Shown here: positions 8,006 through 63,241 of the stretch, piece by piece
Layout of the letters: each line of letters begins with the position of its first letter
Numbering within the stretch: position 1 is the stretch's first letter
Assembly (NCBI GenBank): GCA_010093815.1
Contig: ML996570.1
Reading direction: 5' to 3' (one strand)
DNA: 64,000 nt
DNA from: Pseudovirgaria hyperparasitica
Lineage: Eukaryota
Program-made: the position numbers and the translations under genes
Notes under the pieces: generated by a model
The model's input: the letters and a program-made list of their open reading frames with translations, nothing else
What the model was told of the DNA's origin: nothing
Databases searched by the model: none

Positions 8006-9392
8006 ATGTCACGCGTCTTCACTCACAATTTTAGGCGAATTGCACCTCTTTGTCTCACAGTAATATCTCTATACTACTTATACGTGCATGTCCCCACCGG
8101 CGAAATAATCCACGATAAAACGATACTGTATCTCCCAACGTCGACATGCGACATCACGCCATCGTTGCAGGAGGTCTTTGTGATGGTCAAGACGGGTGCC
8201 TGTGAAGACTATGAAAGACTGATCACTCAAAGCAAGACGTCGCTCCAATGCGTCCCATCGAGTTCGATAGCCTACTACTCGGATCTAGAAGAACAAGTTG
8301 GAAGCATACATTTACGCGACACATTCAATGGATCAGTGGATCAATGGTATATCGATACTGATGACGAGTTCATTCTGTACAAGAAAATGCTGGAGCAAGG
8401 AAGCTGCAAAGGCATCACGAAAGAGGATATGCAAGCTGCGGACCCTCGCAAAGGCCTCAACGGCAACAATGACAACAGAGGCTGGAACTTGGACAAATGG
8501 AAGTTTCTACCAATGGCAGATATCACTTACTCATTGCAATCAAACAAGAAGTGGTATATCGAAATCGAGGTTGACACCTATCCAATCTGGCGCAACGTGT
8601 TTAATTTCCTTGCCAACTTGGACCACGAACATGATTACTATATTGGATCGCCAATGTTCGTTGCTGGCGTAGCATTCATATATGGGGGCAGCGGAGCGAT
8701 CATATCGCAATCTGCCATGCGCAAAGTAGTTGATCACATCCGCGAGAACACAACAGACCTCCAGAAGTTTACGCACGACAATTGGGCTGGCGACCATGTC
8801 ATGGGGAAGACTCTGAAGGATGTCGGCGTTGGACATACAACCATGTCTCGCGAGTTTGTGAGAGACAGTACTATTGGTGCGGATTATTCATTTCACTGGT
8901 GCACTGCAGCCCTCTCGTTCCACCATGTGACTGCAGAGGAGGCAGTAGCCTTTCACGAATTTGAAACCCAGTGGTTTGGCAAGGTAGGCTCACGGTATAA
9001 TCTTCAAAGTTACAGACTACAGAGTACTGACTTTGTACCAGTTCTCAACGCAAATAATGCGACACAAGGACATATTTCATGGATATATCTTGCCGCAGCT
9101 CGAAGGTCTCTCTACCGAGATAGATTGGGATAACAACGCACGGGACGATGCCAGCAACCATCCGCATTTCAATAGCACCTTCGAATCTTGCAAAGAGATC
9201 TGTCTCGCCGCCTCAGATTGCGTTCAATATCGATTCGCGTATGGCAAATGCTACACTACCAAGTTCCCTCAAATTGGCCGGAGAGAACCTTATAGCCGAT
9301 CTGGATGGCTTCCAGATAGAGCGAGGAAGTGGGCAGATGATCACAAGCCATGTACTCGCAATGATGAGGAGTGGAGTCCTCACAACCAATAG
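8006..9392 (+). CDS. Glycosyltransferase family 31 (Fringe-like/beta-1,3-galactosyltransferase-like), type II membrane protein, ~442 aa
   Basis: N-terminal TM anchor; motifs VMVKTGA, GWNLDKWKFLPM, KWYIEIEVDTY, YIGSP, YGGSG, WAGD, SFHH; Cys-rich C-terminus. Intron 8984-9041 joins ORFs 8006 and 9033 in frame. Confidence 0.85.
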
Positions 9393-17283: not shown

Positions 17284-17739
17284 TCTTGATCACCTCTGAT
17301 AGCACGTATGACTCTGATACATGTGTCGCTTGAAGGTTTAAACTTGTCGGGGTGACTCGATGATTAAAATATCTTCTGCCGCCTTCATATAAAACCTTGT
17401 ATGTGTTGTCCCCCCCTCCCCCCTCCACTGCCTGGTAACGCTACTCTGGGAATTGGTCCGGGCTTGCCAGACCTTGCCACGACGCCTGTCCACTTCGGGT
17501 ACTCCATCTACTATCTTTTGCCTAGGATCTTGTTTGTCGATCACTACTTAGCTTCATGGATAAAGCTATCCATACCCCTTGTGGTGCCCTCGGAGCTTCA
17601 CATGTGTCCGTACACTTCTCATCATTCTTTGCTCTTGATATAGTTGAATTAACATTTATTGGCATATCTTCATGTTGGTTGAGTAACACTGTAACCATTC
17701 CCTGCGTTCATCGCACCCTCTCCCAATCGTCCCATCACA

Positions 17740-20700
17740 ATGGCAACCAAGATCGCCGTCATTGGTTACGCATGTCGTCTACCTGGCCAAGTGTCAACGC
17801 CAGAGGATCTCTGGGAGCTTTGCACTCGTGGCCGGAGTGGGTGGTCTGAAATACCGAAAGATCGAATGAGTGTGGATGCCTTCCATCACCCGAATCCCTC
17901 CAAGGCCGGCGCGTTCAATCCTAAAGGTGGCTACTTTCTCAAGCCAGAAGACTATGAGCGCTTTGACGCGTCTTTCTTCAACCTCACACCAGCCGAAGCA
18001 ATTTCACTGGATCCACAGCAGCGACTTCTTCTAGAATGCACGTTCGAGGCGCTCGAGAGCGCTGGCATTCCTCGAGAGCAGATTGCTGGACGTGATGTGG
18101 GCGTTTACATTGGGGGTAATTTTTCAGATTATGAATTAAGAAATGTGCGAGACTTGGAAACCTCTCCCATGCATCAGGCCACTGGTTGTGCTCCAGCAAT
18201 GCAGTCGAATCGCATATCTTACTTCTTTGACCTTCGAGGCCCAAGTTTGACAATCGACACCGCATGTTCGGGAAGTCTCGTCGCACTGCATCATGCCGTA
18301 CGAAGTATACAATCCGGGGAAACCACTGAGGCCATCGTTGGTGGATCTCGTATGAACCTTCTTCCAGATTACTTCGTCACAATGTCCATGTCTCAGCTCT
18401 TCAATGACACTGGGAAGACATTTGCTTTCGATGAACGTGCAAACTCCGGGTTTGCGCGGGGTGAGGGTGCTGGTGTGGTTCTCCTGAAACCACTCGACGC
18501 AGCGATCCGAGATCGTGACCCGATTCGCGCCGTCATCTGTGGTACTGGAGCCAACCAAGATGGTAGAACGCAAGGAATCACGAATCCAAATGGAGATGCG
18601 CAACGGGACCTCATCAAAAGAGTGTATCAGGAAGCTGGGCTAGACCCAAAGCTCGTTGGGTTTGCCGAAATGCATGGTACTGGTACTAAAGTCGGAGATC
18701 CAATCGAGGCACGCTCTGTGCACGAGGCACTGGCAATACACCGATCACCGCAGGATCCGCTCTACATCGGCAGGTAAGTAAATCTAAGTTTTCTCCGAGA
18801 CCAATACTGACCCTAGGACCCTGTAGTGCCAAATCAAACGTTGGACATCTGGAGGGTGCAAGTGGCATCGTCTCACTCATCAAAGCAGCTATGATGCTGG
18901 ACAAGGAGCTGGTTCTACCTAATACGAACTTTCGCAAAGCAAACCCTGCCATACCCATGCAGGATTGGAACATGAAAGTTCTCACATCGACCAGGCCATG
19001 GCCACGTGGTAAGAAGTACGTTTCCATCTCGAACTATGGGTTTGGAGGAGCAAATGCCCATGCTGTGTTGGAACGTCCACCTTTGGACCGGAACGACAAG
19101 CCGCAAGTCGATGCAGATTCAATACCGGACCCAAGGACAAAGCTTTTCACCATATCTGCAAACGACAAAGAGTCATTACAAGCTCGTGTTAAGGACCTGG
19201 GGGTTTACTTTGAGCAACGTCCGGAAGTGTTTGAGAAGATGCACGCATCGAATGTTGCCTACACATTGGGCTCAAAACGATCCCATCTAGCTTATCGTCT
19301 CGCCGTTTCTGCCAACTCTTTGGACGAGCTCGGGATGAAGCTTGCACAAGTTAGACTTACATCCTCGAAGGTGCTCAAACAGCCAGTCATCGGCTTTGTA
19401 TTCACCGGTCAGGGCGCTCAGTGGGCACAGATGGGCGTAGGCCTTATGAATATATATCCAGCATACTCTGCAGCCATTACAAGAGCTGACAGATACCTCA
19501 AGCAGATCGGTGCAGATTTTTCGCTCATAGAAGAACTGCAGAAATCTCCTCAGTCCTCTCGTATCAATTCACCGGACCTCAGTCAGCCCGCTTGCACTGC
19601 TGTTCAGATAGGACTCGTCGACCTGTTCAAGTCCTGGGGTATTTGTCCTTCGACAGTTGTAGGCCACAGCTCAGGGGAAATTGGTGCTGCGTATGCTGCT
19701 GGCGCTTATAGCGCTGACGACGCCATGGCCATGGCGTACCAGCGCGGCATGATGACTTTGAAACTCAAGAAGATGTTTCCGTCATTGAAGGGTGGGATGA
19801 TCGCCATCGGTGCGAGCGCCCAAAAAACGAAAGCATATATTGACAAAATCAAAAAGGCTTATTTGACAATTGCATGCATCAATAGCCCTACTAGTGTGAC
19901 CGTCTCAGGGGATGCTACTGCGATTTCACAGCTTCATGACCTCTTGGACGAGGACAGTGTCTTCAACAGAATCCTCAAAATCGACGTTGCTTATCACTCA
20001 GAACATATGGCTCGCGTATCTGAACAATACCTCGCAGCCATAGCAGACCGGGTACCAGCGAACTCTTTGACGGCCAAATTCTACTCCTCTGTCCATGGTC
20101 GTGAGGTGGAGGCTTCCGAGCTTGGTCCAGAGTACTGGGTCAGGAACCTTGTTTCTACGGTGCTATTTCCCAACGCATTAATACCCATGTGTACGGGGGA
20201 TAGCAAGCCAGATATACTGATCGAAATGGGTCCTCACTCCGCACTAAAAGGCCCAATTAAAGATACTTTGAAGAGTCTTGGCCCTTCCAGCGTTAAGATT
20301 GAGTACTCTGCAAGTGTTCTTCGAAACACTAGCGCCGTAGAGTCTGTTCAGGATGCTGCGGGTGCTGCGTACGTCAAGGGCGCGGTCCTCGACATGTATG
20401 CAATCAACTTTCCCAGCACAGGGGCAAAGTACAATTCGCTCCTGACCGACCTCCCTCGCTACCCATGGCAGCGCTCAACGTCGTATTGGCACGAATCTAG
20501 AATTCCAGACAAACACAAGTCAAGAAGTGGAAAGCGGAATGACGTACTCGGCGTTCTCGCCAACTATTCGAATGATCTAGAGCCAACGTGGAGAAACATT
20601 ATTAGGTTGGACGATGTGCCCTGGTTACGACATCACAAGATGCAGGGAATGCCCGTATTTCCCATGGCTGGCTATCTATCCATGGCCGTCGAAGCAGCCC

Positions 20701-23700
20701 AACAACGAGCAGATGACCGTAAAGTGGCATTTGACACCTTCGAGTTACGCGAGGTAGTTGTCGGCTCAGCTTTAATATTTCAGGATGGGGTGGACACGGA
20801 GGTCACAATAACGCTTCGCCCGTTCAGTGACGCCTCAAGGGGGCAATCGGACACATGGGACGAATTCAAGATCTGCTCATACGAATCGAAGCGCGGGTGG
20901 GCCCAACACTGCCGAGGACTTGTCCGGGTAAATGACTCCGAGAAACACAAAGATCGAACGGTCGCTGTCGACGCCTCGATGCATGAGGCAGCGGCAAGGA
21001 GCCAATTCGATCACGCAGCTGCTTTGGCAACAAAACCTGTCGACGAAGACGCTATGTACGCCAGAATTGACGCAGTAGGAGCTGGTTACGGTAGCACTTT
21101 CCAAGGCCTGCGTCAATGCTACACAGGGGCCCACCACAGTCGTGGTAACATCTTTGTACGAGATACTCGAAGCATAATGCCCAAAGAACACGAGCCTACC
21201 CTCATCATTCACCCATCTCTGCTCGATATTTTCCTACACCTCACTTGGCCTATCCTCGGTGCTGCAGGAGACAATTTCGAGACCCTATACATGCCCACAG
21301 TAGTGCAATCAGTCAAGATTGGCCGTGATGTAGTGCACATTCCAGGAGAGTACTTATCTGTTTGGTGCGCTGGAGACCCAGATCTCTCCAATCCCAAGCC
21401 GACTACATTCGAAATTTGTGCAGCTAGAGCAGGCGATCTTGGAAACCCAGTGATCAAATTCGACGGATTTGTTATGACGCCAATCAGGGACTCTGGTGCA
21501 GCTGATAAGTCTCTCGTGAGAAAACTTTGCTATAAGCTCGTCGAGCAGCCCTTTATAGCCCCGATTCCAATCAGTCAGAAGAGTGAGATGAATGGTCAAC
21601 ACCATAATGGCATCAATGGACACGTATATAGCAATGGCCACGCGAATAGCGTCAACGGTAATATCTCTGATGATGAGCTAGCAGACAGCGGTATCGGCAC
21701 GCCGATTGAACAACCAAATATCCTCATCCTCCAGATTGGTGAAAACGACAAGCTTGCTGAGGATCTAGCCGGCGCCATCAACTTCTCGACTGGTTCGCGA
21801 CCTCCGATTCGGACTGTCGGCAAGACGTACTGCTCCAATAAGCGCCTTGTCATCCTTGAAACGGCCACGAAGTCACTACGCACGATCGAGCAAGCTGAGT
21901 TTGATAGCCTTAAGCAAGCTCTATTAACTGCTAAGGACGTACTGTGGGTTTACTCTCGCGACTTTCCAGAGTCGAGCATGAGTGTCGGTATGCTCCGCTC
22001 GATTCGCTCGGAAAATTCGCATAGAATCGCGATACTGGGTGTTGAAGACATTGAGTTAAAGTCGAACTGGCCTTCCAGGTCGATCATGCGAACTCTGGAT
22101 GCCCTGTGGTTCGCCGAGTATGAAAAACCCGTGGAAGATCTAGAGTTCGTGGCTAAAGATGGCGCACTATTCGTGCAACGAGTCGAGGAAGACAATCTTA
22201 TGAATCAATTCGTCAGTAACGAGAATGGCGCTACCATTCTTGAAAAGCAGTCGTTTGAACAAGCGGATAGAAGACTGAAGATGCAGATCGGTAGCTATGG
22301 GGCTCTTGATAGTATCCACTGGGTGGACGACATTCCTGTTGCCCTTGGGGATGGCGACGTCGAAATCGAAGTTAAAGCTTCTGGTGTCAACTTCAAGGAT
22401 ATCGTGGTCTGTATGGGACAGCTCAGTCAACCGTACATCGGCGTCGAGTGCAGTGGTATCATTTCTGCAGTTGGCAAGAACGTGACCAGCGTCAGGATCG
22501 GACAGAGAGTCATGGCTCAAGTCGAAGGCGCATATTCAACCTACGCACGCTGCCCTGCGACGAGTGTTCATCCTATCCATGAAGGCATGACTTTTGAACA
22601 AGCAGCGACTATACCGGTCGTATTCTGCACGGCATACTATGCACTGTTCGACCTCGGCCGGCTACAAAGAGGTGAGAAAGTGTTGATACACGCTGGCGCT
22701 GGCGGTGTAGGGCAGTCTGCTATCATGCTTGCGAAAATGGTCGGCGCCGATATCTACACAACTGTGGGTAGCCGAGATAAGAAGAAATTCTTGATGGACC
22801 AGTATAATCTTCCCGAAGATCGCATCTTCTACAGCAGAGATACCTCCTTCGCAACAGACATTCGCAGGGCAACCGGCGGGTATGGTGTAGATGTTGTCTT
22901 GAACTCTTTGGCTGGTGACATCCTCCACGACACCTGGGGCCTACTCGCGCCCTTTGGTCGCTTTTGTGAGATTGGCAAGGCCGACATTACCAGGAATAGT
23001 CGCCTGGACATGATGAAGTTCGAGTATAACTGTTCTTTCAACTCAATCGATCTGACCAAGGTGGCATCTTACAAGCCTCAACTTATGCAACGTTTGCTCG
23101 CAGACGTCTGTGGTCTGATGAGCAAAGGAATTATCTCTCCCATATCGCCTGTCAAGATCTACTCTATTTGCGAAACTGAATTGGCTTTCAGAGCTTTGCA
23201 AAGTGGCAAAGCTATGGGTAAGCTTGTTGTCGTTCCTCATCCAACTGATACTATTCTTGTAAGTACCCTCTGATACTTCGTTTTCGTAGGTTCTCATCAG
23301 ATCCAGGCGTCCAAACGAAAAGTTGGCGACAATATCCTCCATGCTGATGCTACGTATGTCATCATTGGCGGTACAGGTGGTCTCGGCCGTAGTCTCGCGA
23401 AGTGGATGTCGTCAAAAGGTGCCCGCAACATCGTCCTTACATCTCGAAGCGCAACTATCAACGCCCGGATCCAAGCCCTGATGGACGATCTCGAGCCAAG
23501 CGGAACAAGAATTCTGGTTCAAAAATGCGATGTAGCCGACAAGGCATCCCTCGAGAATCTCATATTCACAGGCCTCGGATCCCTCCCCCCTATTCGCGGC
23601 GTCGTTCATGGTGCTATGGTCCTTCGAGATACTCTCTACGAGCAAATGTCTCTTGCAGACTTTCACGCCGTAACAACTTGCAAAGTTGATGGCGCTCTTA

Positions 23701-24437
23701 ATCTTGCCTCAATTCTCTCTTCCTCGCCCCTCGACTTCTTCATCGCCCTCTCCTCTATTGCCGGTGTTATTGGAAACCGCGGTCAGGCCGCCTATGCTGC
23801 CGCAAACGTCTTCTTGGATTCATTCATGGCGCACCGTCGAGCTCAGGGTCTGCCTGGTGTCTCCATTGATCTGACTGCCGTTTCCAACGTCGGTTACCTA
23901 GCCGATGGGAGCGCCGCGCGCCGAGAGGAAGTGCTCAAGAACATAGGCGGCTCAACAATCGATAAGGCAGAAGTGCTAGCCATTTTTTCGGCAGCTGTCA
24001 CGGGTGAGATTACTCGTACATGCGCAGGACAATGCATCACCGGCCTAGCCACAAATGACTCTACAAGTTTTTGGCTCGAAGACAATAAATTCAAGTCTCT
24101 GCGCGAAGCCGTTCAACAGACTTCAGGGTCGGCTGGCTCATCAGGTGTTGCGGTCGCACTATGTAAAGTGCTGCGTACATCGGCAAGCAAAGACGATGCG
24201 AAGCAAGCATTCTACTCGGCACTCGCAGCCAAGTTGGGGGCTGTACTGGTGGTCCCTGAGGATGCGATCGAGCCGACGCACACATTGAAGAGTTTGGGCT
24301 TGGACAGCCTGGTTGCGATAGAGATCCGTAACTGGATTGGGCGAGAAACTGAAGTGAATGTGCAGGTCCTGGAGTTGTTGACGAGTGGAAGCATCATGAG
24401 TTTGGTGGAGCTGGTGTTGAAGAAGATGGGAATTTGA
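17740..24437 (+). CDS. Highly reducing iterative type I polyketide synthase, KS-AT-DH-ER-KR-ACP, no C-methyltransferase, ~2198 aa
   Basis: Introns 18774-18826 and 23259-23306 give a continuous frame. KS DTACSGS/HGTGT/GHLE; AT GHSSG; DH HKMQGMPVFP and DIFLH; ER LIHAGAGGVG; KR GGTGGLG, VLRD, YAAAN; ACP LGLDSL. Confidence 0.96.
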
Positions 24438-45303: not shown

Positions 45304-47123
45304 TCAGTCACACACGACCATCCAGTACCCCAATATACTCCACACCGTCGTCGTGCCAACAAACATGTACCCCATAATATGCGCCGGCCCCAGCATCAGA
45401 CTCGACGCAACATAGCGCCCCGCCACGCCGCCCAACAGGCCGATCCAAAAGACAAAGAACCCGACGTCCCACATCTTCGCGCGCAGCTTCGAGTGGCGCG
45501 ACAGCTCCTTGCTCGAGCGCATGGTGGTGCCCCACGAGTCGTTGAACACGGTCATGAGACTCCAGGCCTGCACGGCGGGGAGGGGCACGTTGTAGAAGAG
45601 GTTTGCGGGGACGCTGTAGAGCCACTCGGCGAGCGAGGGCCGGAGCGGGTTGCGCACGGCGAGGTAGACGAGCGTGAAGGCGAAGCGGAAGAGGTAGTCC
45701 TGGAAGGAGAAGTGGAGGGGGGTGACGCCGGTGAAGAGGTAGACCATTGCGATGACCATGGCGGTCATGCCGGTGAGCTGGCGGCGGAGCGCGGCGAAGA
45801 AGAAGATGGGCGGCTGTTGGAGGTAGATTTCCGGGCGGGAGTAGCTTTCGATGTGGACGGCGCGGGCCCAGCGGACTTGTTGGAGGAGCCAGCGGCGCAT
45901 GTTGATGGGGGATTCGGTGGCGGTGAAGGCGTCGGGGATGAATAGGATTCGCCAGCCTTTTAGGAGCAGGCGGGTGGTGAGATGTCGGTCCTCGTTTACG
46001 ATCATGCTGGATTCGTCTGTCAGTTCTGGTCCTGACTACTGCGCTGGGGTTTTGTGACTTACCGATGTCCGAGGACAGTCTGCTTGTACCACGCCAATAG
46101 CTCCGGGATGATCAGCGCAGTACGGAAGACCGCACACGGTCCGCTCTGGCAGTCGTTTGCCCCAAATGAGCTGGCGAAACATCTGGACAGGTGCAGTTCG
46201 TTGAGATAGACGGAATTGCCAATCTTGGTGATCAACGTGTCATTCCTGTTGTGGATTGAAAGTGCAGTGCTCGCGCCAGCCACCAAGGGATCTCCTGCAA
46301 TTGTCGCTACAGTGCGTGAGATTGTGTTTCGCAAAACGATAGAATCGGAATCGGACGTCCAGAGATACTCGATGCCTAGAGCGTCCGAGATGACCTTTGA
46401 GAAGATGAAGGAGGTGAACATGACACCCTTCTTGTGCATGTGTGGCTGGCTGATACAGAGTCTGGAGATGGCGCCTTCTCCGGTCAGTCGGATGTTCTTC
46501 TCCTCGAGGATACGCTTGGCAATTGTGCAGCATTTGTCCAGGATGTCGTCGTCTGGTGTGTCCTTTGACCGCATTCGGTCCATGGACAGGGCGATTTCAA
46601 CAAGGGGCACTTGAAGGTGGAGTAGTGTCGAGTCCGTCTTGTAGACCTTCGAGAACACATTGACCATCTCCTGGTCCTCATCACCATCGCCATCGACACA
46701 AGCCAGAACGAACCGACAGTTGTCAGCGGTGATGTAGCTCTGCAATGCCTTGGTAAAGATGGCGGGATCCTCCCTATAACCTACAACGGCAGCCAGACAG
46801 TCCAGGTTGCGGTCTGCAGCAAAGCTCTTCTCATATTGTCTATCCGACCTTTTGGCCGACAGCACATGTGTATTATTTTCGTTACGCAGCGCCGTCCGCT
46901 TGCGCTTCCGCGCATTCGACCAGCCACAGTACTCAGCCAGAAAGATGGACAACCCAGTATCGATAGTCCACAAATGATTAGAGACGATAAGAAGGTAGAA
47001 GTAAAGAGACGACGCCAACACGCAGCCCACGAGATTGAACCATTTCCGGGTCACCGGGCTGGCGACCTCCACCCTGGCGGCCTTGCGATCTTCAAACGGC
47101 TTTGGGCGAGCGACATAACCCAT
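45304..47123 (-). CDS. Processive GT2 glycosyltransferase, hyaluronan synthase/NodC-like, multi-pass membrane protein
   Basis: Intron 46007-46062 joins ORFs 46059 and 45304. VVGYRED, CVDGD, HKKGVM, TSDSDS (DxD), CQSGPCAVFR, NEDRHLT, QQVRW, SWGT; two N-terminal and several C-terminal TM helices. Confidence 0.9.
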
Positions 47124-48708
47124 AGTGAACAAAAAAACAAGCGAATGGACGTCACCTCTGTGACAATAGATAAGGGGGGAACGAGCGGACAGCTAACGAA
47201 GCGAAACGTCATTTGGGAACCGCCCACCTTTTGAGCTGATCCATTCTGCCCCCGAGTCTCTCGAAGAACATATGAGCCCAGCAGTCATGCGTTGCAGAAA
47301 TTAGAGATGGCGCTGTCACATCGGATGAGCGAGGTACGGGGTGGTGGCTTGTGCTTAGTTCTTGATAATTGATGCTCTAACGGTGCTTGGACGTTTGGCC
47401 ACATGCGAAATCCCAGTTTAGCCTGCTTCCTGTCCTAGTTATCAGGTCCTAGTCTTTGGCTCGCAACAAGCCGGACAAACCTTAGCACTAACACTTTCGG
47501 CCGATCCTCGTTGGAGATGTCGTTGTACAAGGCATGTTGTGTACTAACCCGAGTATTCAAAGACAATTGCCAGAATTCAGAGTGCTTCTTGACGGCTTCT
47601 TGAAGCTGGCAGGCAAGCCGGCACGCAATGAAAACAAGCACTGTCAGGACAGTCAGGACAGGCCCAAGAGCATCACGTGGCATCAGCAGGCTACTAGCCA
47701 GGAGAAATACGTAAGGATGGGTTGCTTCTTTGGGGCTATTAAGCCGCAGGGCAGACACAGAGGAAGCCAGCCGATTGCCACCGCAAGGAGCAACAAGCCT
47801 GTCCAGGATCTCCAAGTCTGGAGCCGCAGAATTGCAATCATCGCCATCGCCGTCACCATCGTACCAGCATTCATACCTCACGCAGATGAGATCCAATAAT
47901 TCTTACGATCAGTCCACCGAGTCGGTGTAGACACTGTAGAGGCAGAATGACGAGAGTATTGGAGCTTATGCAGGCCATCGTGGGCAGCCAGCAACAAGAG
48001 CAGTCACGGGTGTCGGCGTGATCAGTCAGACAATGAATGGGCAATTTAAGGTGGCCGAGCTGATTGGCTGAGAGTAGGTCCCGGGACATGAGGGATTCAG
48101 GGTTCGAATGATATCGGATGTTTGGGGGAGCTCGAAAATTGGCATGTAGGCCCACCTCTCGTCTAATGTAGTGACTTATTAGTCCGCACGCTTAGTGTGT
48201 GCTTTGCGGCTTGTAGTATGGAAGCGATGAAAGGTTCAAGCACGCTATTGACGAGCGCATTTTACCAACACATAAGAATGGGCAGATGATGATGATGATG
48301 GCGAGACGAGCTGTTGGGTGTTTTGTTTTCCTGTTTAATTAATTTAGACTCTCCAACAGAACGCGAGGGGAGTGCAAAGTTGTCAGTGTGGCTTGACCTT
48401 GACCCGTTCGGATGTCCATGGATCGTCTTATGGCTTAGTCACTGCGCCACGCTCAGGGATCCGATCCTCATGGCGCTGCCGAGCCGGCGCTCCGGGCTGT
48501 ACTTGTTAGGGTTAACTCCATTACTTGGGCCTTTTGTCTCCCTTTTTTTCTGCTGCATCGACGACTTGTAATTGTGATTCTTTGACCTTGTTTGCAACCT
48601 CTTTGATTGCAGGCTGTCATTGCAGGGCAGCGATGCGACAGCGTGCTAGAAGTAGTACTGTATAGACAGAAAGAGATCAGGTGATTCCTTTCGACAACGA
48701 GTGCGCGC

Positions 48709-48711
<3 letters not shown>

Positions 48712-48755
<44 letters not shown>
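48712..48755. repeat. (AG)22 microsatellite ending 36 nt upstream of the acyltransferase ATG
   Basis: Direct reading. Confidence 0.9.
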
Positions 48756-48759
<4 letters not shown>

Positions 48760-48791
48760 CTGGCCTGGATAGCTGTTCTTGCGATCCGAAC

Positions 48792-50274
48792 ATGGCCTTG
48801 TCACCGCCATCGAGTGGTAATGTGAGTGGCGGAAGAGAGGTGTGGCTGGATGGCCTGAGGGGATATGCAGCAGTCATCGTTGCATGGTTCCATCTGACGA
48901 ATGTTTTATTTCCCGTGTGTATACACCCAGCTATCATCGAGAATAACATCAACAACAAGAGAATGCGAGAGAAAGACTGACAGGCTCCAGATGCCATACC
49001 GCTCGTACTGGGCCGACCCGCCCGAGGACAACCGCCACTTCATCCAGCTCCCGCCCTTCCGCATCGTCTTCGCCGGCCAGGCCATGGTCGACATCTTCTT
49101 CGTCGTGTCCGGCTACTCGGTCTCGATCGCGCTCATCCGAGCGCGCAACAGAGACGGCGTCGTAGCCGGCGACTTCTACCGCAGACTCACGTCGGCCGTC
49201 TTCCGGCGCTTCTTCCGCCTCTTCATCCCCGTGCTCGTGCTCGTCACGCTCTCGCACCTGCTCTACTTCCTCAACCTCTACACCTGGATCTTCTCCGCCG
49301 AATGGGGCTTCCCGGGCTGCATACCCTTCACCAGCCCCTGGTCGCATCTCAAATGGTACCTCTCCACCATCGCCTCGTTTGCCTACCTGCAGACCAACCA
49401 GAACCTGACGCTCAACGACCACCTCTGGACCATTCCCGTGGAGATGTGCGGCTCGCTGCGCGTGTATCTCGCCGTGCTCGGCTTCGCGGCTGTGCGTCCG
49501 CGGCTGCGGCCCTGGCTCGTCGCGCTGGTGGGTCTGCGCCTGCTCTGGCTCGGCAACCCGGAATACACGGCCTTTATTGCCGGGCTGACGTACGCCGAGC
49601 TCGACGACGGCAACACGAGCAGGACGATGTCCCACGGCGAGCTGCCACGTGTGACGCGGGCGGCGGAGGAAGAGGAGGAGGAGAGGATGATCCGGCACAC
49701 ACCGCCGAAAACGACAACGACGACGACGACGCTGCGACTCCGGCCCCTCAGACGCGCCATCACGCCCGCAAAATGGGCCATGTTTGCAATCAGCATATAC
49801 CTGCTCTGCCTACCGGTGGAAAACCCGTTCCCGGCGGACTGGGCGTTCCAGCGACACATCCGGCCGCCGTACTGGAAGGACTGGGAGATTGCGATGCGGT
49901 CGTGGCAGACGATTGGGGCAGTACTCTTCATCGGCAGCGTGCGGCAGCTGCCGGTGCTGAAGCGGCCGTTTGAGACGCGGCTGGCGCAGACGCTGGGGTC
50001 GGTGTCGTTTTCGCTGTACCTGCTGCATCAGACGGTGTACCGGACGCTGCTGAACCGGATGTTGGACTGGTGGTCGTGGGTGTTTCTGGGGGACGGGTAT
50101 TGGGAGGTTGGTCCTGAGCTGCGCGGGTATGTGGTTGGGTTGGTGTGTGTGTGGATTCTGAGTGTTGCCGGGCTTATGGCAGTGTTGGCGGTGGGGACGA
50201 GGTATATGACTCGGGCGGTGGACCAGAGGTCGGTTGTGCTGGCGCATCGGATCGAGGAGTGGTGCTGCAGATGA
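48792..50274 (+). CDS. Membrane O-acyltransferase, Acyltransferase-3 family (OafA-like; fungal CHIP3-like)
   Basis: WLDGLRGYAAVIVAWFH in exon 1; intron 48915-48990; IQLPPFR, MVDIFFVVSGY, RRFFRLFIP, HLWTIPVE, LGSVSFSLYLLH, VDQRSV. Confidence 0.9.
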
Positions 50275-50275
50275 G

Positions 50276-50760
50276 TTATTCTTGTGATTTTTGTTGCGTG
50301 CATGTTCTGGTGTTGGGAGGGCGGAGGTTGTCTTGGTGGCGACCTGTGAGGGTTTGCGATAGATATAGACACGGGCAACAGACATGCCATGAATATCAAG
50401 GCACACGAGACGAACCACAAAGTGAATGCACGTACCGGTAAAGAATTCCCGCTCGCAAGTCTCACACCGGAAACCCCGACATCCCCTCCGCATCCCACCC
50501 GACCCCCTCCAACCACCTCCCAAACTCGACATCCACGCCACTCGTGAAGAACGGACATGAGGCAACGTAGACGCGGACTTGGGCTTGGACTTTGGCCTGG
50601 TCAGGGGCGCCGGGTGATAGACGCACAGGTCGGCTCTGTTCCGACGGGTGCATCTGGCGCACGCAGGCACCGCGTGGTCGCACCGGAGCTTGGCCTTTCT
50701 GCAGGGCTCGCAGGCCTGCAGCTTTCCGTTCCGGCGGTACGCGGGCGGCGGCGGTGGCAT
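50276..50760 (-). CDS. Short Zn(II)2Cys6 binuclear cluster protein (~130 aa) or truncated transcription-factor remnant
   Basis: RRNGKLQACEPCRKAKLRCDHAVPACARCTRRNRADLCVY is a complete cluster. A candidate intron 50344-50435 leads to a stop at 50276-50278. No middle homology region follows. Confidence 0.6.
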
Positions 50761-52355
50761 AAGTGGCTGTGTTACGTGGCCATGGCTTGAGTAGGATGGG
50801 TGAGGCGGATGAGAATGGATGTAGTGGTGGTGTGCGGTGTTGCGTATGTCTGGGTGGATCTTGTACGGTGTTTGTAGTGAATGTGAATGCCGTTGCGGAG
50901 TTGGGCATAGTCTCAACTCCGCAAAGCTTGGTCCGCTCGTGTCTTTTTGGTGCTTAATGCTTGGCTTGATAGTTGGTATGCTGACGGTTTGTAGGACTGC
51001 CAAGCATCTTAGCACTTTCCTCACACTGTATCCCGCCATGCCGAACGCCGCATCAAGATACAGACATGCCGTGGGCCAGGCAGCTGCATTGCGCAGTTGG
51101 ATGGTGCGTACAGTTTGTGTGCGGTATTGTGGTGCGTATGCTGACAGGCGTGAGTTAGGCAACCGCATTACGGAGATGGATGTGAATATAAATATATGCA
51201 TGCATGTAGTCGTGCGCGGTGAGAGTGCTGTTGCAGTCCATCTTGACATTGACATCAAAACCAATACCAAGAACAGCAATGCCAGCCCTACCCACCATGC
51301 GTGTCTTTGGCAAGAAGAAGGCCGAGCCTACCTCGCTTGCCCGAGCATCTACATGCACATCCACATCTACAACATCCACGTGCACACTCTCCAAGGCACA
51401 GCATCGAGACCAAGACACAGCAGCAGCAGCACGGTATGAGAAGGAGGTAGCAGGTATGTTATATCAAGTCCAGTCATCGTTCGTGGAATGATATGCTGTG
51501 AGTGTAGGTAGGATAGGACTGATGAAGAGTGGTAGGGCCGGCGAGGGTGAATGCGATGCGACTTGCGATGTGATTGGTGGTGGTGGTGGTGGAGGATAGT
51601 GGATGAAGGAGGTGGAGAGAGTGGATGAAGTGAATGGAGCGAGTCGGTTGATGGATGGAGGGGGTGGATAGAATAGACAGGTGTATATGCAGGTCTTGGA
51701 ATCGTACATATGCTGGAAACCATCATCCATCATCCACGCCCCACCTCCACCTCTCCACATCTCCACAGCAGTAGCATCAGCAGCGAAGAAGGCGGGGAAA
51801 GAGGAGGAGTAGTAGTAGTAATTAGTGCTAGTACAGTACAGTACAGTACAGTAATATTGAATATACAGGCCCTCACTGATAATAATAAAAAAAGAAGCCG
51901 AGAAGAAGTGCCGTGGACGGGCCAGTAATTACGGGCGTACTATATAGCTGATTACCAGGTATAATAGCTGATTACTGCGTATAGCTACTGCCAAGGTGCG
52001 TATAGCTAGGACTGGGGATAATTAGAGCTACTACAGACTGTACGTAGGGTACGAGAACGAGGCACAGCAGCCTGACTCGCTCACTGCGGGCTTGTCTCCA
52101 TCATGGATAAGTACCTGTAGCACCTAATTACCGAGCATATCTGTGCAAAACGACGACGACGGTAGCTAGCTACTAATAAGCTAGTTAGCTATACACGAGA
52201 CGGCATTATAATTGCTGGGTATGTATATAGCAGCAACAGCAGCAGCAGCCTGTGCGATCGCAGCCCTCACAGCCATCTCGACGCCCCTAGTGCCACTACG
52301 ACTACTACTACTATTACTACCACCGCCGCTGCAGCAGCTGCTCAGCACAACAAGC

Positions 52356-54153
52356 ATGTATCTCCGCACCAGCATCCCACTCCTAGCCAGCATCCCATTC
52401 GGCACAACAACAACAACAGCAGCAACAACAACGTCAGACTTCTCCGCAAGATGCACAGCACTCACCTCCACCATCGCCATCCCCGGCGCAACGGTGTGGT
52501 TCGCCGAGGTGGTAGCCGCAGGAACAAACATCAGCGTGCCCGAGTATGCAGAGTACGGGTGTGCAAGTGCGGCGTCAGAGTACAGTGTGCAGCGGGACAT
52601 CTGCCGGGTTGCGATGCGGGTTGCGACGACGGAGCGGAGTGAGATTAGCATGGAGGCCTGGCTGCCGCGCGAGTGGAGCGGGCGCTTTCTGAGCACGGGG
52701 AATGGCGGGCTGGGCGGATGTATGTCAGGGGATGAAGAAGTGTGTGTATGTGTGTGTATGTGTGTGCTGATGAGAGAGAGACAGGCATCCAGTATTACGA
52801 CGTGGCATATGCGGCGAGTCTGGGGTTTGCGGCGGTGGGAACAAACAATGTGAGTGAGTGAGAGGCGGGGGGGGCTATAGTCTCTACAAAGCACGTGCAG
52901 TGTATGACGGGATTGCATATAGGGACACAATGGCACGTCCGGCAAGCCATTCTACCAGAACGAGGAGGTGGTCAGGGACTTTGCCTATCGCGCGTGAGTA
53001 CCTTCGATGTCTAGGGGTTCTCGAGACTGACATGCACAGGATGCACACGGGCGTGATCGTGGGAAAGGAGGTGACGGCGGGGCTGTACGGCAAGGCGCAC
53101 AGCAAGTCCTACTACCTGGGCTGCTCAACCGGCGGACGTCAGGGGTTCAAGGCGGTGCAGGAGTATGCCGACGACTTTGACGGCGTCGTTGCAGGCGCTC
53201 CGGCCCTTGACTTTACCAACCTGATCAACTGGTCCGGCAGCTTCTACGGCAAGACGGGAGCGCCAAACTCGACGACGTTTCTGTCGACGGAGCAGCGCTT
53301 CCTGGTCAACGAGATGGTGCTGGCGCAGTGCGACGCGCTGGACGGCAGCGTGGACGGGCTGATTGAGGATCCGTCGCTGTGCAATCCCCGACCTGAGGCA
53401 CTCATCTGTAGTACCACCACCACCAGCAGCACAGACTGTCTGAGCAGCGCCCAAGTAGCCTCTGTCCGCGACCTCTTCTCGCCTCTCTACGGGCAGAACG
53501 GCAGTCTGCTCTACCCACGACTGGAGCCGGGAGCGGATGCGTTTGCGCCAGGCGGACTCGGCTTGATCGTCAACGGCAGCCCGTTCCCCTACACGGTGGA
53601 CTGGTACCGCTACGTCGTCTACAACGACGCAACCTTTGACGCCGGCAAGCTGACAGCCGCCGACTACGCGGCATGCAACGCAAAGACGCCCTACATCTCG
53701 ACGTGGAAGGGCGACCTGACTGCCTTCCAGCAGCGCGGCGGAAAGGTGCTGACCTATCACGGCACCGTCGACAGTCTCATCTCGCTCGACAACAGCGCGC
53801 GATACTACGAGCACGTGTCGCGCACGATGAGCCTGCCGTCCAGCGCGCTCGACCACTTTTACCGCTACTTTCGCATCTCCGGCATGGCGCACTGCAGCGG
53901 AGGCCCGGGGGCGTGGCAGATTGGAAACCAGGCGGTTGGCAACGCGACACTCGAGGCCGAGGGCAACGTTCTCATGGCCATGGTGCGGTGGGTGGAGGAG
54001 GGCGTGGGGCCAGAGACGGTTACGGGGACAAAGTTTGTGAATGATAGCAAGGTGCTCGGGGTTGAGTTTCGGCGGCGGCACTGCAGATATCCGCAGCGCA
54101 ATGTGTTTCAGGGCGGAGATGCAAAGTCGGCGGACAGCTGGAGGTGCGTGTGA
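52356..54153 (+). CDS. Tannase-family feruloyl esterase
   Basis: EAWLP..WSGRFLSTGNGGLGGC, SYYLGCSTGGRQG, DFDGVVAGAPA, YHGTVDSLI, GMAHC, CRYP; three introns between ~52720 and 53039; start codon uncertain (52221 or 52356). Confidence 0.92.
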
Positions 54154-60924: not shown

Positions 60925-61540
60925 CTACAACCTGCTCACAAGCTTATTCCCCTTGGCCACAAGCGACGCCTCAAACTCCTCCTTCGTCGACGCATTCCAC
61001 TTGGCATCGTGCTTGCCCAGCCGCGCCTCCTTGCCCGGAAAGGCAATATACAGCACATCCCGCTCGCCATGCCCGTTGTCCCCACTAACCGAGTCGTCGC
61101 CAAAACACAGCTGCGCCATCGACAGCGAGGCCTCGCCCGTGACTACGCCGCCGTTGACGTCGCCCCAGATACCGTAGATCTAGCATCACACACTCCTGTC
61201 AGCCACACACATCCCAAGCACACAACCCAACCCAACCCAACCCAACAACAACACAAGAAAAAAGAAAAACTCACCAGCTTCCCCCCACAAACAACAGCAA
61301 CAACACTCAACGGCTCCACCCCATGACTCTGCGGACTAAACTCCATCCCCTCCGCCCCGGAATTCCCAAACACCACATACGGATGCACATGCGCGTCCAG
61401 ATCCGCGATCCCGTACTGCGCCACCGTATCCTTGAACGCCGTCTCGCTCTGCTGGCTCCCGTCGTTGCTGCACCGGCCCTCGGTCGAGTGTTGGCCGTCG
61501 CAGTCGATGTCCATGTCTGCGTAGCCTCCGCTTTTGCTGG

Positions 61541-61578
<38 letters not shown>

Positions 61579-61814
61579 AGATACATTACGTTTGCGGTCG
61601 TGTCGTGGCAGTATGTTACGCTGGGGCTGGAGCCGCCGTAGGAGGAGTCGCCGAGTCCGACTTTGAAGTTTGCGGACATGCGGTTTGAGGGCTTGCAAGG
61701 GCCGGATTTGTGGGTGTCGTAGAAGGCTTTTACGTTAGCCGGGAGGCGGATTGCTAGGGTGGTGGTGGTGGTGAGGGTGAGGGTTAGGAGGGTTAGGAGG
61801 GTTTGGGGGTGCAT
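60925..61814 (-). CDS. Glycoside hydrolase family 75 chitosanase, secreted
   Basis: Signal peptide; ADMDIDCDG, QSETAF, LDAHVHPYVVFGN, PLSVVAVVCGGKL; intron 61180-61274; IYGIWGD, GEASLS, DVLYIAF. Confidence 0.93.
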
Positions 61815-63241
61815 TTTTGGTTTTGGGGGTTGGTGAAGGAGTGTGTGGGTGAGTGTGCGGATGGATGGGTTGGATGGATGGGTTGGATGGATGGATGGAA
61901 GAGTGAAAGAGTGAATGAGTGTATGTGTAGAGAATGTGGTACCTGTCCGCTTTGCCTTCTAGGACTCGAGCTACGGCGCTTTTGACATATATATATATAC
62001 ACAGGTACACTCACGACTCACGCACACACACACATAAAGCGGGGCCGTCACGTTTACGTTTCGTTTCGTCTTCTTCATCTTCATTTTTCTTTCCCACGCA
62101 GGCCAGCTGGTTTCCGAATCGTTTCGAGAACGTGGGCTTCCCTCATCAATTACCCGCTTTGTTCGTCTGTCTCGGCCTGTTTCCCCACACATCACACCCG
62201 CACATCCCAGCCTTGGGAGGATTAAAGCTTATAAGAGGAAAGAAATACGGGTGGTGGTATGTCACTGGTTTTGTAGGATGATGGATGGCTAGGATGGCGG
62301 TGTTAGTTGGCCTTGCTTGAGCCACTGCTTGATACTGGACACTGGAAAGACGGCGTCTATGCTTGGTTGTGGACAATTTTTCCTTGGCAAAGGGCATGTG
62401 CTGTGCATGAACGCTGGTATGGGCGTAACTTTGTTTTCTGTTGTGTCGTTGGGAGATGTACACACACACACACGCACACACACAGTTTGGTTCTTGCTGA
62501 ATCGCGGCTGTAGGAGAGTGGTGGGGAACTAATTAAACAGAGGCAGAGTCTCTCACAATACAGTATACAATTACCCACGCCACACTCCTACACCTATAGT
62601 GTCGGCCATCTCTTTGATTTTTAGATGGACGTAATGGTAATGCTAGGAAACCCCGGGCGCTAGTGAGTGTAATGTCTACCGTCTGGTCTTGGCGGCCATG
62701 TAAACACAAGTCTATAGCCCTGCCCTCACGCTCCCCCCTCTCCTCCTGCCCCTCCTCCCCAGGGGCTATAACCATCCCGATGCCCTCAGCCAACATTCCC
62801 GACAACAACTGTATCACCTCTACAAACCGACCGTGATCCGGGAAAGACGATGCTCAATCCATCATCCGAGCGTCTGCACGCGCGCCCCGCCCAACCACGT
62901 TTCAACACGATTCGTCTCCGCGACTAACCGCAATAGGCAAGTATAATACATCAACGTGAAACGGTGCGCCAACAGGGTGCTGCTATTGTTCAACCCTGGA
63001 TCCCCCGGGCGGACATGAGCGGCGGGCGCTTCACCATTGTTTCGTTTGCCAGGACGTCCCGGATGTGTGAAATAAGCAGGAGCGGCGGGATCCAGCAGGA
63101 TGCTGTTTGTGATCTGAGGCTTGGCTTGGTGTGATCGCAGGCGTATCTGCTCGTGTGGCACCCTCATAAATTCTGCTGCGGGAGGCGTTGCCGTTGGGCC
63201 TCCCGGCTTGGCCTGGCCTGGCTTGATGGAAGCTCTTATCG

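Follow-up and report, generated by a model that had tools for sequence, protein, structure and literature searches.

A conserved, divergently transcribed gene pair for a hyaluronan synthase-like glycosyltransferase and a putative glycan O-acyltransferase in Pseudovirgaria hyperparasitica

Do two neighbouring genes of the fungus Pseudovirgaria hyperparasitica, one for a processive GT2 glycosyltransferase and the other for an acyltransferase-3 (AT3) protein, act on the same extracellular glycan? The question arises from a 64,000-nucleotide stretch of contig ML996570.1 (assembly GCA_010093815.1), here called the window. A first-pass annotation proposed that these genes and an adjacent Zn2Cys6 gene form a module resembling the bacterial operons that pair a polysaccharide synthase with an O-acyltransferase. 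Here we consider the structures of the genes, their relatives and their linkage in other genomes.

The GT2 gene lies at positions 45304-47123 on the minus strand. Exon 1 (46063..47123), an open reading frame covering codons 1-354 with the last codon split, corresponds to the first part of database protein P0001. It is followed by a 56-nt intron (46007..46062; GTAAGT...ACTGAC...CAG), which is spliced out in RNA-derived contigs of runs X1 and X2. Exon 2 (45304..46006, stop codon included) encodes the motifs NEDRHLT, QQVRW and SWGT and the C-terminal membrane helices. The spliced protein of 587 aa is identical letter for letter to P0001, and the whole sequence matches the Pfam models Glyco_trans_2_3 and Chitin_synth_2.

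The AT3 gene (48792-50274, plus strand) also has two exons and yields a product of 468 aa. Its second exon (48991..50274, stop codon included) is the 427-aa database model P0085, which lacks the 41 codons of exon 1 (48792..48914). The intervening 76-nt intron (48915..48990; GTGTGT...ACTGAC...CAG) has GT..AG ends and is spliced out in both runs, giving the joint 48914/48991. Exon 1 aligns with the N-termini of the orthologues P0087 and P0099. Pfam Acyl_transf_3 matches exon 2 alone with an E-value of 2.9e-10 and P0087 with 1.7e-18. The catalytic motif set, as defined in passages of PMC7448272 and PMC12423673, is complete only when the unannotated first exon is counted in. This exon supplies DxxR in TMH1 and R-X10-H (D23, R26 and H37); exon 2 adds FFVVSG in TMH2 (F80, F81, S84 and G85) and RRFFR in TMH3 (R114, R115 and R118). 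All ten residues are invariant among 18 orthologues. AT3 has the catalytic motifs of carbohydrate O-acyltransferases, in agreement with the first-pass annotation. Both genes had also been described as intact, and contigs of both runs represent each of them as a spliced, transcribed gene.

The divergent intergenic region (47124..48791) measures 1668 bp from start codon to start codon, in agreement with an earlier estimate of about 1.67 kb. Within it, the RNA contig that spans GT2 exon 1 ends at 47601, and that of AT3 begins at 48768. Spliced contigs from the two public runs confirm the exact borders of both introns; both runs derive from a single sample in a single study, and their contigs convey neither expression levels nor co-regulation. 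Comparison of the spacer with orthologous spacers found no common words above shuffled controls. In Alternaria alternata, the GT2 gene is listed among the unexpressed genes of one mycelial RNA-seq study, according to a portion of PMC6073358.

The third proposed member of the module does not belong to it. A complete six-cysteine motif is encoded at 50712-50623 on the minus strand (regular expression match; Pfam Zn_clus E 2.5e-6), behind an ATG at 50760 (50623..50760). It is convergent to the AT3 gene and lies 349 bp past the AT3 stop codon. Beyond the DNA-binding motif, the open reading frame is not protein-like, is poorly recognised in the Atlas and extends in antisense into the coding sequence of AT3. 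No counterpart is present in any of the 15 other loci checked, and tblastn returned no match across 37 loci. Because the motif is confined to the window and the remainder of the frame is not protein-like, the Zn2Cys6 gene falls outside the module and is ruled out as a part of the cassette. It is a lineage-specific relic or orphan and not a regulator of the neighbouring genes.

Among solved proteins, the nearest relatives of GT2 are the class I hyaluronan synthases (HAS), by sequence, fold and length. A phmmer search against all PDB sequences gave five distinct matches at E<=1, every one a HAS, led by the Chlorella virus enzyme (CvHAS; E 1.6e-25) and Xenopus HAS1 (9e-24); neither chitin synthases nor cellulose synthases were among them. 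An AlphaFold model (pLDDT 80.2, pTM 0.81) leads to the same relatives. The top 13 Foldseek matches of the predicted fold are HAS structures with TM scores of 0.61-0.72, compared with about 0.35 for BcsA and 0.29-0.40 for chitin synthases. VIA-align superposes 424-465 residues of the model on HAS with Z scores of 27.2-34.3 and rmsd of 2.9-3.6 Å; Z is 17.9-22.6 for BcsA and 19.2-19.9 for Chs1. The description of GT2 as HAS-like is thus upheld by both sequence and predicted fold. Its nearest PDB matches by sequence and fold are HAS, and GT2 is not an ordinary chitin synthase.

Across 25 members of the GT2 family, DSD (258-260), NEDR (358-361), QQVRW (396-400), H228 and K231 are invariant. The last two are equivalent to His174 and Lys177 of CvHAS, for which residue roles are taken from passages of PMC12987647. 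GT2 retains the DxD, QxxRW and WGT motifs of class I HAS along with the uracil-pocket histidine and lysine, and it would share their membrane-embedded GT-A plus channel architecture. However, identity to HAS is only 17-24%, the GT2 family has NED where HAS have GDD, and Ile406 stands at the position of conserved HAS Arg348. The last two replacements indicate that GT2 is not a plain HAS.

Within NCBIfam, the best match of GT2 is the NodC model (93.9 bits, E 9.7e-27, residues 256-409), a score that covers the catalytic core only and compares with a cut-off of 550 bits. This match points to GlcNAc as the likely donor sugar. Rhizobial NodC, a GT2 from this superfamily, transfers GlcNAc, and in Nod factor synthesis its product is O-acetylated by the AT3-only proteins NodX and NolL. 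GT2 could by analogy make short chito-oligosaccharides that AT3 O-acetylates, giving a diffusible signal rather than a matrix polymer. The NEDR motif, which is GEDR-like and differs from the GDDR of HAS, is consistent with such a product, as is the Atlas structure row for bacterial N-acetylglucosaminyltransferases (447 aa), which gives a TM score of 0.77. No NodC structure is among the PDB matches, so this reading is also compatible with the fold result. Nevertheless, the core-only match falls far short of the NodC cut-off, and the whole 587-aa model, with all of its C-terminal helices, superposes on HAS captured with a growing polymer inside its channel (8smn, Z 29.3, 455 residues). GT2 is longer than NodC, has the full set of HAS-like membrane helices and contains an intron, and no NodA-like or NodB-like genes are present among 75 neighbouring ORFs of 15 loci. 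A signal oligosaccharide is consequently an unlikely product.

The synteny check proposed with the first-pass annotation is positive in several lineages. Of 37 metagenome loci, 8 have AT3 upstream of and divergent from GT2; counted by distinct GT2 sequence, these are 6 of 29. Eighteen distinct loci extend at least 1.8 kb upstream. Four of these carry AT3 at this position, two carry AT3 together with a Fringe-like GT31 glycosyltransferase, nine carry GT31 and three carry neither. The three last encode the most distant GT2s (25-34% identity), so a tailoring gene is at the position in 15 of 15 in-family loci. In sister clades, GT31 replaces AT3 or stands beside it. This GT31 partner does not appear in the first-pass annotation.

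Sequenced genomes provide further cases. The GT2 and AT3 genes have neighbouring locus tags in Aspergillus nanangensis (FE257_009021/009022) and consecutive accessions on one contig in Alternaria alternata (OAG17293/OAG17294). Four Xylariales strains have both on contigs of equal size, taken to be the same contig; 4 of the 10 clade I 'AT3' states come from equal-sized contigs alone, adjacency itself not having been seen. Many members of clade I (A. niger, Penicillium, Monilinia and Parastagonospora) have no AT3 orthologue among the 34 matches returned by a search that scored 8000 candidates. The GT2 family is of small size and patchy distribution, counting 64 cluster representatives at E<=1e-30. 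The main splits of its tree agree with those of the AT3 trees: a Pleosporales clade (100), the separation of L017/L025, and a clade of the window, Xylariales and A. nanangensis, although grouping of the window with Xylariales has no firm placement in the careful AT3 tree.

The two genes might nevertheless be neighbours with no more than a promoter region in common, AT3 acting on some extracytoplasmic substrate other than the GT2 product, such as a glycolipid, a secondary metabolite or a different wall glycan. AT3 proteins have many kinds of substrates, as PMC9558356 and PMC12423673 describe. In Periconia macrospinosa, a contig of length 624205 carries the GT2 gene and one of length 1324167 the AT3 orthologue, so the pair is unlinked there. 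No shared promoter motif was found either. On the other hand, the divergent order persists among lineages that share just 40-60% GT2 identity, the alternative occupant of the position is also a glycan-tailoring enzyme, and no further conserved neighbour occurs at the loci compared. Together with the matching trees, this persistence in other genomes and on metagenome contigs places the pairing beyond chance, and it is quite unlikely that the two functions are separate.

A remaining possibility is that GT2 is a true HAS that alternates GlcNAc and GlcA, with AT3 acylating fungal hyaluronan. In CvHAS, Lys177 and Arg341 sandwich the GlcA carboxylate, and both are kept in GT2 as K231 and R399; however, the same passages of PMC12987647 attribute QxxRW, which includes Arg341, to cellulose and chitin synthases too, so conservation of R399 does not discriminate. 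Although HAS are the sole nearest solved relatives and sources call family members 'hyaluronan synthase' (HAS_Phanod_10021 for the P. nodorum member in the supplementary FASTA of Goncalves et al. 2016), this reading is very improbable given the low identity, the NED motif, an isoleucine where HAS of both bacteria and eukaryotes reportedly keep an arginine, the automatic origin of the database names and the lack of a UDP-glucose dehydrogenase among the neighbouring ORFs scanned.

The explanation that we favour, and consider somewhat probable overall, is that GT2 and AT3 form a conserved, co-inherited cassette that makes and O-acylates an exported, GlcNAc-containing glycan. The donor sugar, product and acyl group are predicted from family resemblance; the length of the polymer, the place where the enzymes act and the biological role are likewise predictions. 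GT2 would be a membrane-embedded processive synthase with its catalytic domain towards the cytosol; the most likely substrate of this domain is UDP-GlcNAc, either by itself or combined with another UDP-sugar. The growing beta-linked chain would pass through the transmembrane pore of GT2 itself. AT3, a predicted 10-helix transmembrane acyltransferase, would use acyl-CoA of the cytosol as the donor of an acyl group (most likely acetyl) and move this group through the membrane to hydroxyls of the chain emerging on the far side. The product would be an extracellular, O-acylated polymer. In sister clades, the predicted type II membrane GT31 protein would act instead of AT3 or in addition to it.

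Several known systems share parts of this arrangement. To our knowledge, HAS genes are without dedicated tailoring genes, whereas the fungal GT2 is accompanied by AT3 or GT31. The PNAG loci icaADBC of staphylococci and pgaABCD of E. coli, on which the first-pass annotation modelled the locus, combine a GT2 synthase (IcaA/PgaC) with further proteins, and IcaC is an AT3 protein. The fungal cassette likewise has a candidate GlcNAc-polymer synthase beside an AT3 membrane protein. However, the PgaC_IcaA model gives just 23 bits with the fungal GT2 (cut-off 422), the fungal genes are eukaryotic and divergent instead of forming an operon, and the ORFs scanned around them include no IcaD-like neighbour and no IcaB-like deacetylase. 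Plant Golgi hemicelluloses are made by a GT2 backbone synthase (CSL) together with type II glycosyltransferases for the side chains and membrane proteins that transfer acetyl groups. The division of labour may be similar, in that a GT2 threads the backbone across a membrane, a type II glycosyltransferase acts in the lumen and a multi-pass protein transfers acetyl groups; the plant genes, however, are unclustered, and the tailoring enzymes belong to unrelated families.

Two other groups of fungal GT2s resemble the present family in part. Class CV virus-like chitin synthases (Chs8 of Fusarium and Trichoderma) are clustered with UDP-GlcNAc 6-dehydrogenase (UNGD) and chitin deacetylase genes, according to parts of PMC5122149 and PMC7053769. 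They too are HAS-homologous, patchy in distribution and found in a small conserved glycan cluster. However, they form a different family: P. nodorum carries both CV_Phanod_12685 and HAS_Phanod_10021, the latter of the present family, whose partners are AT3 and GT31; UNGD and deacetylase genes are absent from the 75 ORFs scanned. Cps1, ZtGT2, MoGT2 and cps-1 represent a GT2 widely conserved among ascomycetes and akin to the type 3 synthase of pneumococci, proposed for extracellular or outer-wall polysaccharide and discussed alongside hyaluronan in portions of PMC5653360 and PMC6731526. Going by these descriptions, the small, patchy family reported here is probably distinct from the widespread Cps1.

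The first-pass annotation knew of no characterised fungal product for a GT2/AT3 pair, and our literature searches likewise found neither such a product nor a description of the pairing. Since GT31 and AT3 exchange at a single position, the family would comprise a synthase with interchangeable tailoring genes. The joint occurrence of GT2 and AT3 in many other fungi points to a chemically decorated, secreted sugar chain that is so far undescribed.

The two central genes of this locus are divergently arranged. The hyaluronan-synthase-like GT2 gene (window 45304-47123, minus strand) has a first exon at 47123-46063, read from the sequence and by comparison with P0001, the 587-aa database protein 'hyaluronan synthase [Pseudovirgaria hyperparasitica]', which is identical to the window GT2 product. 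A 56-nt intron follows at 46062-46007 (GTAAGT, a branch-point-like ACTGAC, then CAG), and exon 2, read from the sequence, extends from 46006 to 45304 and includes the stop codon. The plus strand carries the acyltransferase-3 (AT3) gene (48792-50274). Its first exon (48792-48914), identified by sequence reading and in spliced contigs, has 41 codons and bears DxxR and R-X10-H motifs. It is separated by a 76-nt intron (48915-48990, GTGTGT...ACTGAC...CAG) from exon 2 (48991-50274), for a whole spliced product of 468 aa. The start codons of the two genes are 1668 bp apart, in agreement with the intergenic distance of the first-pass annotation.

Contigs of two public runs omit exactly 46007-46062 and 48915-48990. 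These runs, of unrecorded kind, represent one sample from one study, and they are taken to be RNA-derived because their contigs lack both introns. Since exactly these two introns are missing, both GT2 and AT3 are transcribed and spliced as modelled, which bears out the earlier description of the two genes as intact. The GT2 contig is 3397 nt long and runs from 47601 to past 44800. The AT3 contig (3964 nt) runs from 48768 to past 51400 and is unspliced through the region of a neighboring Zn2Cys6 ORF. The two long contigs leave 47601-48768 unbridged, are uninformative on strand or expression level, and have depths that cannot rank genes. The AT3 contig continues unbroken over 50275-52768, by way of the Zn2Cys6 region, into exon 1 (about 52212-52850) of a tannase/feruloyl esterase gene whose main exon is 52858-54150; transcription on either strand thus covers the entire stretch. 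Directly upstream of the AT3 start codon, the leader carries a (GA)n microsatellite of about 45 bp (48712-48757), which was passed over as a repeat when the run contigs were aligned.

The database model of AT3, P0085 (427 aa), takes the first Met of exon 2 as its start and so leaves out exon 1. A truncated protein of this type would be inactive, because the TMH1 motifs, with the catalytic His and Arg, sit in exon 1. The corrected 468-aa gene model is new here, and the spliced contigs back the longer form.

GT2 resembles hyaluronan synthases (HAS) more closely than any other enzymes of known structure. When all PDB sequences are searched with GT2, the matches at E<=1 comprise five distinct HAS sequences only, among them the Chlorella virus enzyme CvHAS (1.6e-25) and Xenopus HAS1 (9e-24), and the alignment extends over the catalytic domain as well as the C-terminal membrane region. 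An AlphaFold (AF2) model built from an alignment of 25 family members (pLDDT 80.2, pTM 0.81) gives the same picture. All top 13 Foldseek rows are HAS, with TM scores by target of 0.61-0.72; below them come bacterial cellulose synthase (about 0.35) and chitin synthases (0.29-0.40). VIA-align superimposes 424-465 residues on HAS at 2.9-3.6 A rmsd (Z 27.2-34.3), whereas an archaeal mannosyltransferase reaches Z 23.9, BcsA 17.9-22.6 and yeast Chs1 19.2-19.9. In the ESM Atlas, Ascomycota clusters named 'hyaluronan synthase, putative' come first, followed by giant-virus chitin-synthase-like and chordate HAS clusters (TM 0.72-0.74 by query) and then by a bacterial 447-aa N-acetylglucosaminyltransferase cluster (TM 0.60 by query). 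The predicted model has N- and C-terminal helices and a channel round the GT-A domain, the features that define class I HAS architecture. Conserved motifs include DSD (258-260), NEDR (358-361), QQVRW (396-400) and SWGT. Residues H228 and K231 are conserved in the family and are equivalent to CvHAS His174 and Lys177, whose functional roles are described in PMC12987647. Judged by the predicted model, GT2 has class I HAS architecture, and it most likely uses UDP-GlcNAc.

The family to which GT2 belongs is small: among 1.84 billion cluster representatives, 64 reach E<=1e-30 and 519 reach E<=1e-10. Most of the 20 distant relatives whose clusters were looked up are metagenome proteins. Several named classes of synthase do not accommodate these proteins. 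GT2 is not a conventional chitin synthase: Pfam reports generic GT2 matches and a partial match to Chitin_synth_2 that is weak (37.1 bits) and covers part of the model only, and no chitin synthase is found among the PDB sequences at E<=1. The PgaC/IcaA class of PNAG synthases (TIGR03937) is rejected at 23 bits against a curated cut-off of 422.3. Nor is GT2 a virus-like chitin synthase of class CV (Chs8), which clusters with UNGD and a deacetylase according to section 8 of PMC5122149 and to PMC7053769. Neither UNGD nor a deacetylase occurs among 75 neighbor ORFs of other GT2 loci. Moreover, the supplementary FASTA file that accompanies Goncalves et al. 2016 lists the Parastagonospora nodorum family member SNOG_10021, which belongs to cluster P0020, as HAS_Phanod_10021 and the CV enzyme of the same fungus as CV_Phanod_12685. 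Further fungal HAS_ rows in that file come from Sclerotinia, Botrytis and Mycosphaerella fijiensis. Within what this source presents, fungal HAS-like sequences had already been noticed and used as outgroups, without being studied themselves. We found no literature on SS1G_06158, BC1G_01656 or SNOG_10021.

AT3 carries the hallmarks of a carbohydrate acyltransferase. Pfam Acyl_transf_3 (PF01757, gathering cut-off 31) matches exon 2 of the window gene with 40.1 bits and the full-length orthologue P0087 with 67.3 bits. Residues invariant in 18 AT3 orthologues (P0087 numbering) are Asp23 and Arg26 of DxxR, His37 of R-X10-H, Phe80, Phe81, Ser84 and Gly85 of FFxxSG, and Arg114, Arg115 and Arg118 at RxxR. 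In the window gene, the TMH1 motifs are encoded by exon 1, and FFVVSG (TMH2) and RRFFR (TMH3) by exon 2. PMC7448272 and PMC12423673 describe DxxR and R/K-X10-H in TMH1, FFxxSG in TMH2 and RxxR in TMH3 as essential or most conserved in carbohydrate AT3 proteins. The protein has no fused SGNH domain and is of the AT3-only type. Its AlphaFold model (pLDDT 80.8) is all-helical and has no Foldseek match in the PDB at E<=0.001; the rows of highest probability are HGSNAT (probability 0.89, TM 0.39). This resemblance between a predicted model and HGSNAT is weak evidence, which fits the proposed TmAT superfamily with its ten-helix fold. A search of PDB sequences with AT3 gives no match at E<=1.

The divergent arrangement recurs elsewhere. 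Metagenome contigs scanned with a GT2 alignment yield 37 loci, or 29 distinct GT2 sequences when those with 98% identity or more are merged. An AT3 orthologue lies upstream of GT2 on the opposite strand in eight of the 37 loci (six of the 29 distinct sequences). The spacers measure about 1.2-1.5 kb and widen to about 2.9 kb when the gene of a Fringe-like GT31 glycosyltransferase lies between the two. In 14 loci (12 distinct sequences), it is GT31 that sits upstream of GT2 in divergent orientation. At least 1.8 kb of upstream sequence is present at 18 distinct loci, which carry AT3 only (four), GT31 and AT3 (two), GT31 only (nine) or neither (three). The three loci with neither gene encode the most distant GT2s (25-34% identity) and fall outside a 68-row clade that holds the window GT2 and all 45 named family proteins in the tree. 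Therefore, 15 of 15 in-family loci bear a tailoring gene upstream. The other 11 distinct loci have less than 1.5 kb upstream and are uninformative, except L005, where the end of GT31 is visible. In the three-gene form (L017:6185-11847, L025:5755-11670 and also L026), GT31 and then AT3 lie upstream on the strand opposite to GT2. Loci L003, L004, L008, L009, L010, L011, L015, L020 and L027, from Sordariomycete-type clades, have a divergent GT31 beside GT2 and no AT3.

Similar linkage is seen in named fungi. GT2 and AT3 reside on equal-sized contigs in four Xylariales strains, are neighbors by locus tag in Aspergillus nanangensis (FE257_009022 and FE257_009021, respectively), and in Alternaria alternata have successive accession numbers (OAG17293, OAG17294) on a single contig. 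The synteny check proposed with the first-pass annotation is thus answered in favor of the pair, both in metagenome loci and in these genomes. GT31 and GT2 share one contig in Stachybotrys elegans and on two metagenome contigs. Thirteen loci contribute 13 partner ORFs with a Fringe domain (PF02434, E 5e-8 to 4e-5), and the sole PDB match of the partner protein is the GT31 protein 8yrl (E 4.1e-5). An N-terminal anchor and an S/T/P-rich stem mark it as a type II membrane protein. The partner GT31 family occurs widely across Chaetomiaceae, Nectriaceae, Fusarium, Stachybotrys and Diaporthales.

The conserved unit does not extend further along the window. Other window ORFs between 38 and 58 kb have no counterpart in the 37 metagenome loci, Pfam finds no domain in the flanking segments 41.3-45.3 kb and 50.3-52.2 kb, and no promoter words common to four orthologous spacers rise above shuffled controls. 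The window has a Fringe-like ORF of its own at 7955-9133 (plus strand, Pfam E 3.7e-5), 37 kb from GT2. It shares only 24-30% identity with the partner GT31s (E about 1e-22 to 1e-27) and is, by sequence comparison, probably a paralogous GT31 outside the cassette. A highly reducing PKS with KS, AT, DH, ER, KR and ACP domains spans three long ORFs at 17695-24437 (plus strand), about 21 kb from GT2. The idea of a glycolipid made by this PKS together with the cassette was rejected, as no ketosynthase occurs among the 75 neighbor ORFs of other loci. A GH75 chitosanase gene lies at 61146-61958 (minus strand), about 11 kb from AT3. Its proximity is probably a coincidence, with no GH75 among the ORFs scanned in other loci. 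The first 6000 nt of the window are very AT-rich (GC 0.23-0.29, versus 0.44-0.61 elsewhere). In a fungus, base composition of this kind usually points to repeat-induced point mutation or to a repeat that has decayed.

The first-pass annotation had also counted a Zn2Cys6 gene into the module. The six-Cys motif (50712-50623, minus strand; Zn_clus 27.9 bits) and its ATG at 50760 are real. The ORF is convergent to AT3. Behind the motif it turns into low-complexity sequence that overlaps the final 465 nt of the AT3 coding region in antisense orientation. No second Pfam domain is found to supply the regulatory or middle-homology region that accompanies Zn_clus in Zn2Cys6 transcription factors. Its Atlas recognition value of 1949 is under the 2300 mark. 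The motif is absent from all 15 other loci checked, and membership in the module does not hold up. By its sequence, this ORF is a relic, or else a small reading frame peculiar to the lineage, rather than a conserved member.

Partner genes follow the branches of the GT2 tree (77 rows, quick search). Clade I (29 rows, support 99) contains a group of the window GT2 and four Xylariales sequences (100), a Pleosporales/metagenome clade (100), and sequences from Aspergillus section Nigri, Penicillium, A. nanangensis and Monilinia. The partner is known for ten clade I rows and is AT3 in all ten; four of these assignments come from equal-sized contigs alone. The sister of clade I (support 98) splits into an Aspergillus/Penicillium group, in which both known members have GT31 and AT3, and a Sordariomycete group, in which all known members have GT31 only. 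GT31 is also the partner in a third clade, which includes Clarireedia. The AT3 trees share the main splits of the GT2 tree. They set L017, L025 and Trichoderma chlorosporum apart (99-100), recover the Pleosporales clade (100), and join the window, Xylariales and A. nanangensis sequences to it (99-100). The grouping of the window AT3 with Xylariales has a support of 98 in the quick tree and is unresolved in the careful tree.

Pseudovirgaria hyperparasitica is a Dothideomycete. Both window proteins are nonetheless nearest to proteins of Xylariales (P0002-P0005 for GT2, P0086-P0090 for AT3) and not to those of other Dothideomycetes. The window GT2 is 77-78% identical to these Sordariomycete proteins over its whole length and 74-75% over exon 1, versus 50-54% to Pleosporales. 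Forcing it into one clade with Pleosporales lowers the log-likelihood by 32.8 units (p-AU 0.0005), and under the same constraint the loss for AT3 is 21.6 units (p-AU 0.019). Because the groups were chosen with the trees already in view, these p values are only indicative. A reasonable reading of the sequences is that the pair may have moved between fungal classes as a unit.

A plausible division of labor can be proposed for the encoded proteins. GT2 would polymerize a β-linked, GlcNAc-containing chain at the cytosolic face and extrude it through its own pore in the manner of HAS. AT3 would bind cytosolic acyl-CoA and acylate the chain on the far side of the membrane, as proposed for bacterial AT3-only enzymes. 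Where GT31 is present, its catalytic domain would be non-cytosolic and would add side residues. The gene association would be biochemically coherent because all three activities would meet on one side of the same membrane system. We consider it fairly probable that GT2 makes and exports a GlcNAc-containing chain that is acylated by AT3 and branched by GT31 where that gene occurs.

Three other readings are less probable. One is that the product is a short acylated oligosaccharide resembling a Nod factor. NodC (TIGR04242) is the best NCBIfam match to GT2, but its 93.9 bits, over model positions 137-289 of 395, fall far short of the equivalog cut-off of 550, and we regard this product as unlikely. 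Another reading is that GT2 and AT3 are neighbors with no common product. Periconia macrospinosa provides a counter-example to linkage, as it keeps both genes (P0007 for GT2, P0095 for AT3) unlinked on differently sized contigs. Five further named genomes, those of Anthostomella pinea, Periconia digitata, Lentithecium fluviatile, Trichoderma chlorosporum and Didymella exigua, yielded an AT3 orthologue and no GT2, and count neither for nor against linkage. The matching splits of the GT2 and AT3 trees mean that the pair has been inherited together and not repeatedly assembled by chance, and mere proximity seems quite improbable. True hyaluronan is a very unlikely product, since GT2 departs from a plain HAS by having NED (358-360, invariant throughout the family) in place of GDD and Ile406, at a position outside the conserved columns, aligned by phmmer with CvHAS Arg348, which PMC12987647 describes as conserved among bacterial and eukaryotic HAS. 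The equivalents of the GlcA-contacting residues Lys177 and Arg341 of CvHAS are retained in GT2 as K231 and R399, but this does not decide for GlcA use because Arg341 is the QxxRW arginine common to other synthases.

An exported, acylated, GlcNAc-containing chain is the preferred product. Synthase-plus-AT3 systems are well known from bacteria. The new element here is the conserved pairing of a HAS-like GT2 family with AT3 and/or GT31, together with the congruent trees. We found no description of a GT2/AT3 or GT2/GT31 pairing in a literature search whose scope left out most subscription journals. As a tentative and broader proposal, Pezizomycotina might possess a mobile exopolysaccharide cassette of a kind typical of bacteria, in which a HAS-like GT2 is combined with exchangeable genes for AT3, a lumenal GT31 or both. 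Such a cassette would be inherited as a unit, would have been transferred as a unit between classes at least once, and would make a hitherto unseen acylated and/or branched, chitin- or hyaluronan-like matrix glycan in fungi such as Alternaria, Aspergillus section Nigri, Botrytis/Sclerotinia, Stachybotrys and Chaetomium.

To our knowledge, fungal walls and extracellular matrices still hold polymers with no known synthase, and O-acylation of fungal glycans has barely been explored outside Cryptococcus. The cassette is a small and well-defined conserved set, consisting of a synthase and one or two tailoring enzymes, and is present in genetically tractable and economically important fungi. If its product is indeed a new acylated GlcNAc polymer or oligomer, this would be relevant to how hosts recognize fungi, to adhesion and the formation of biofilms, and to hyaluronan synthase evolution.
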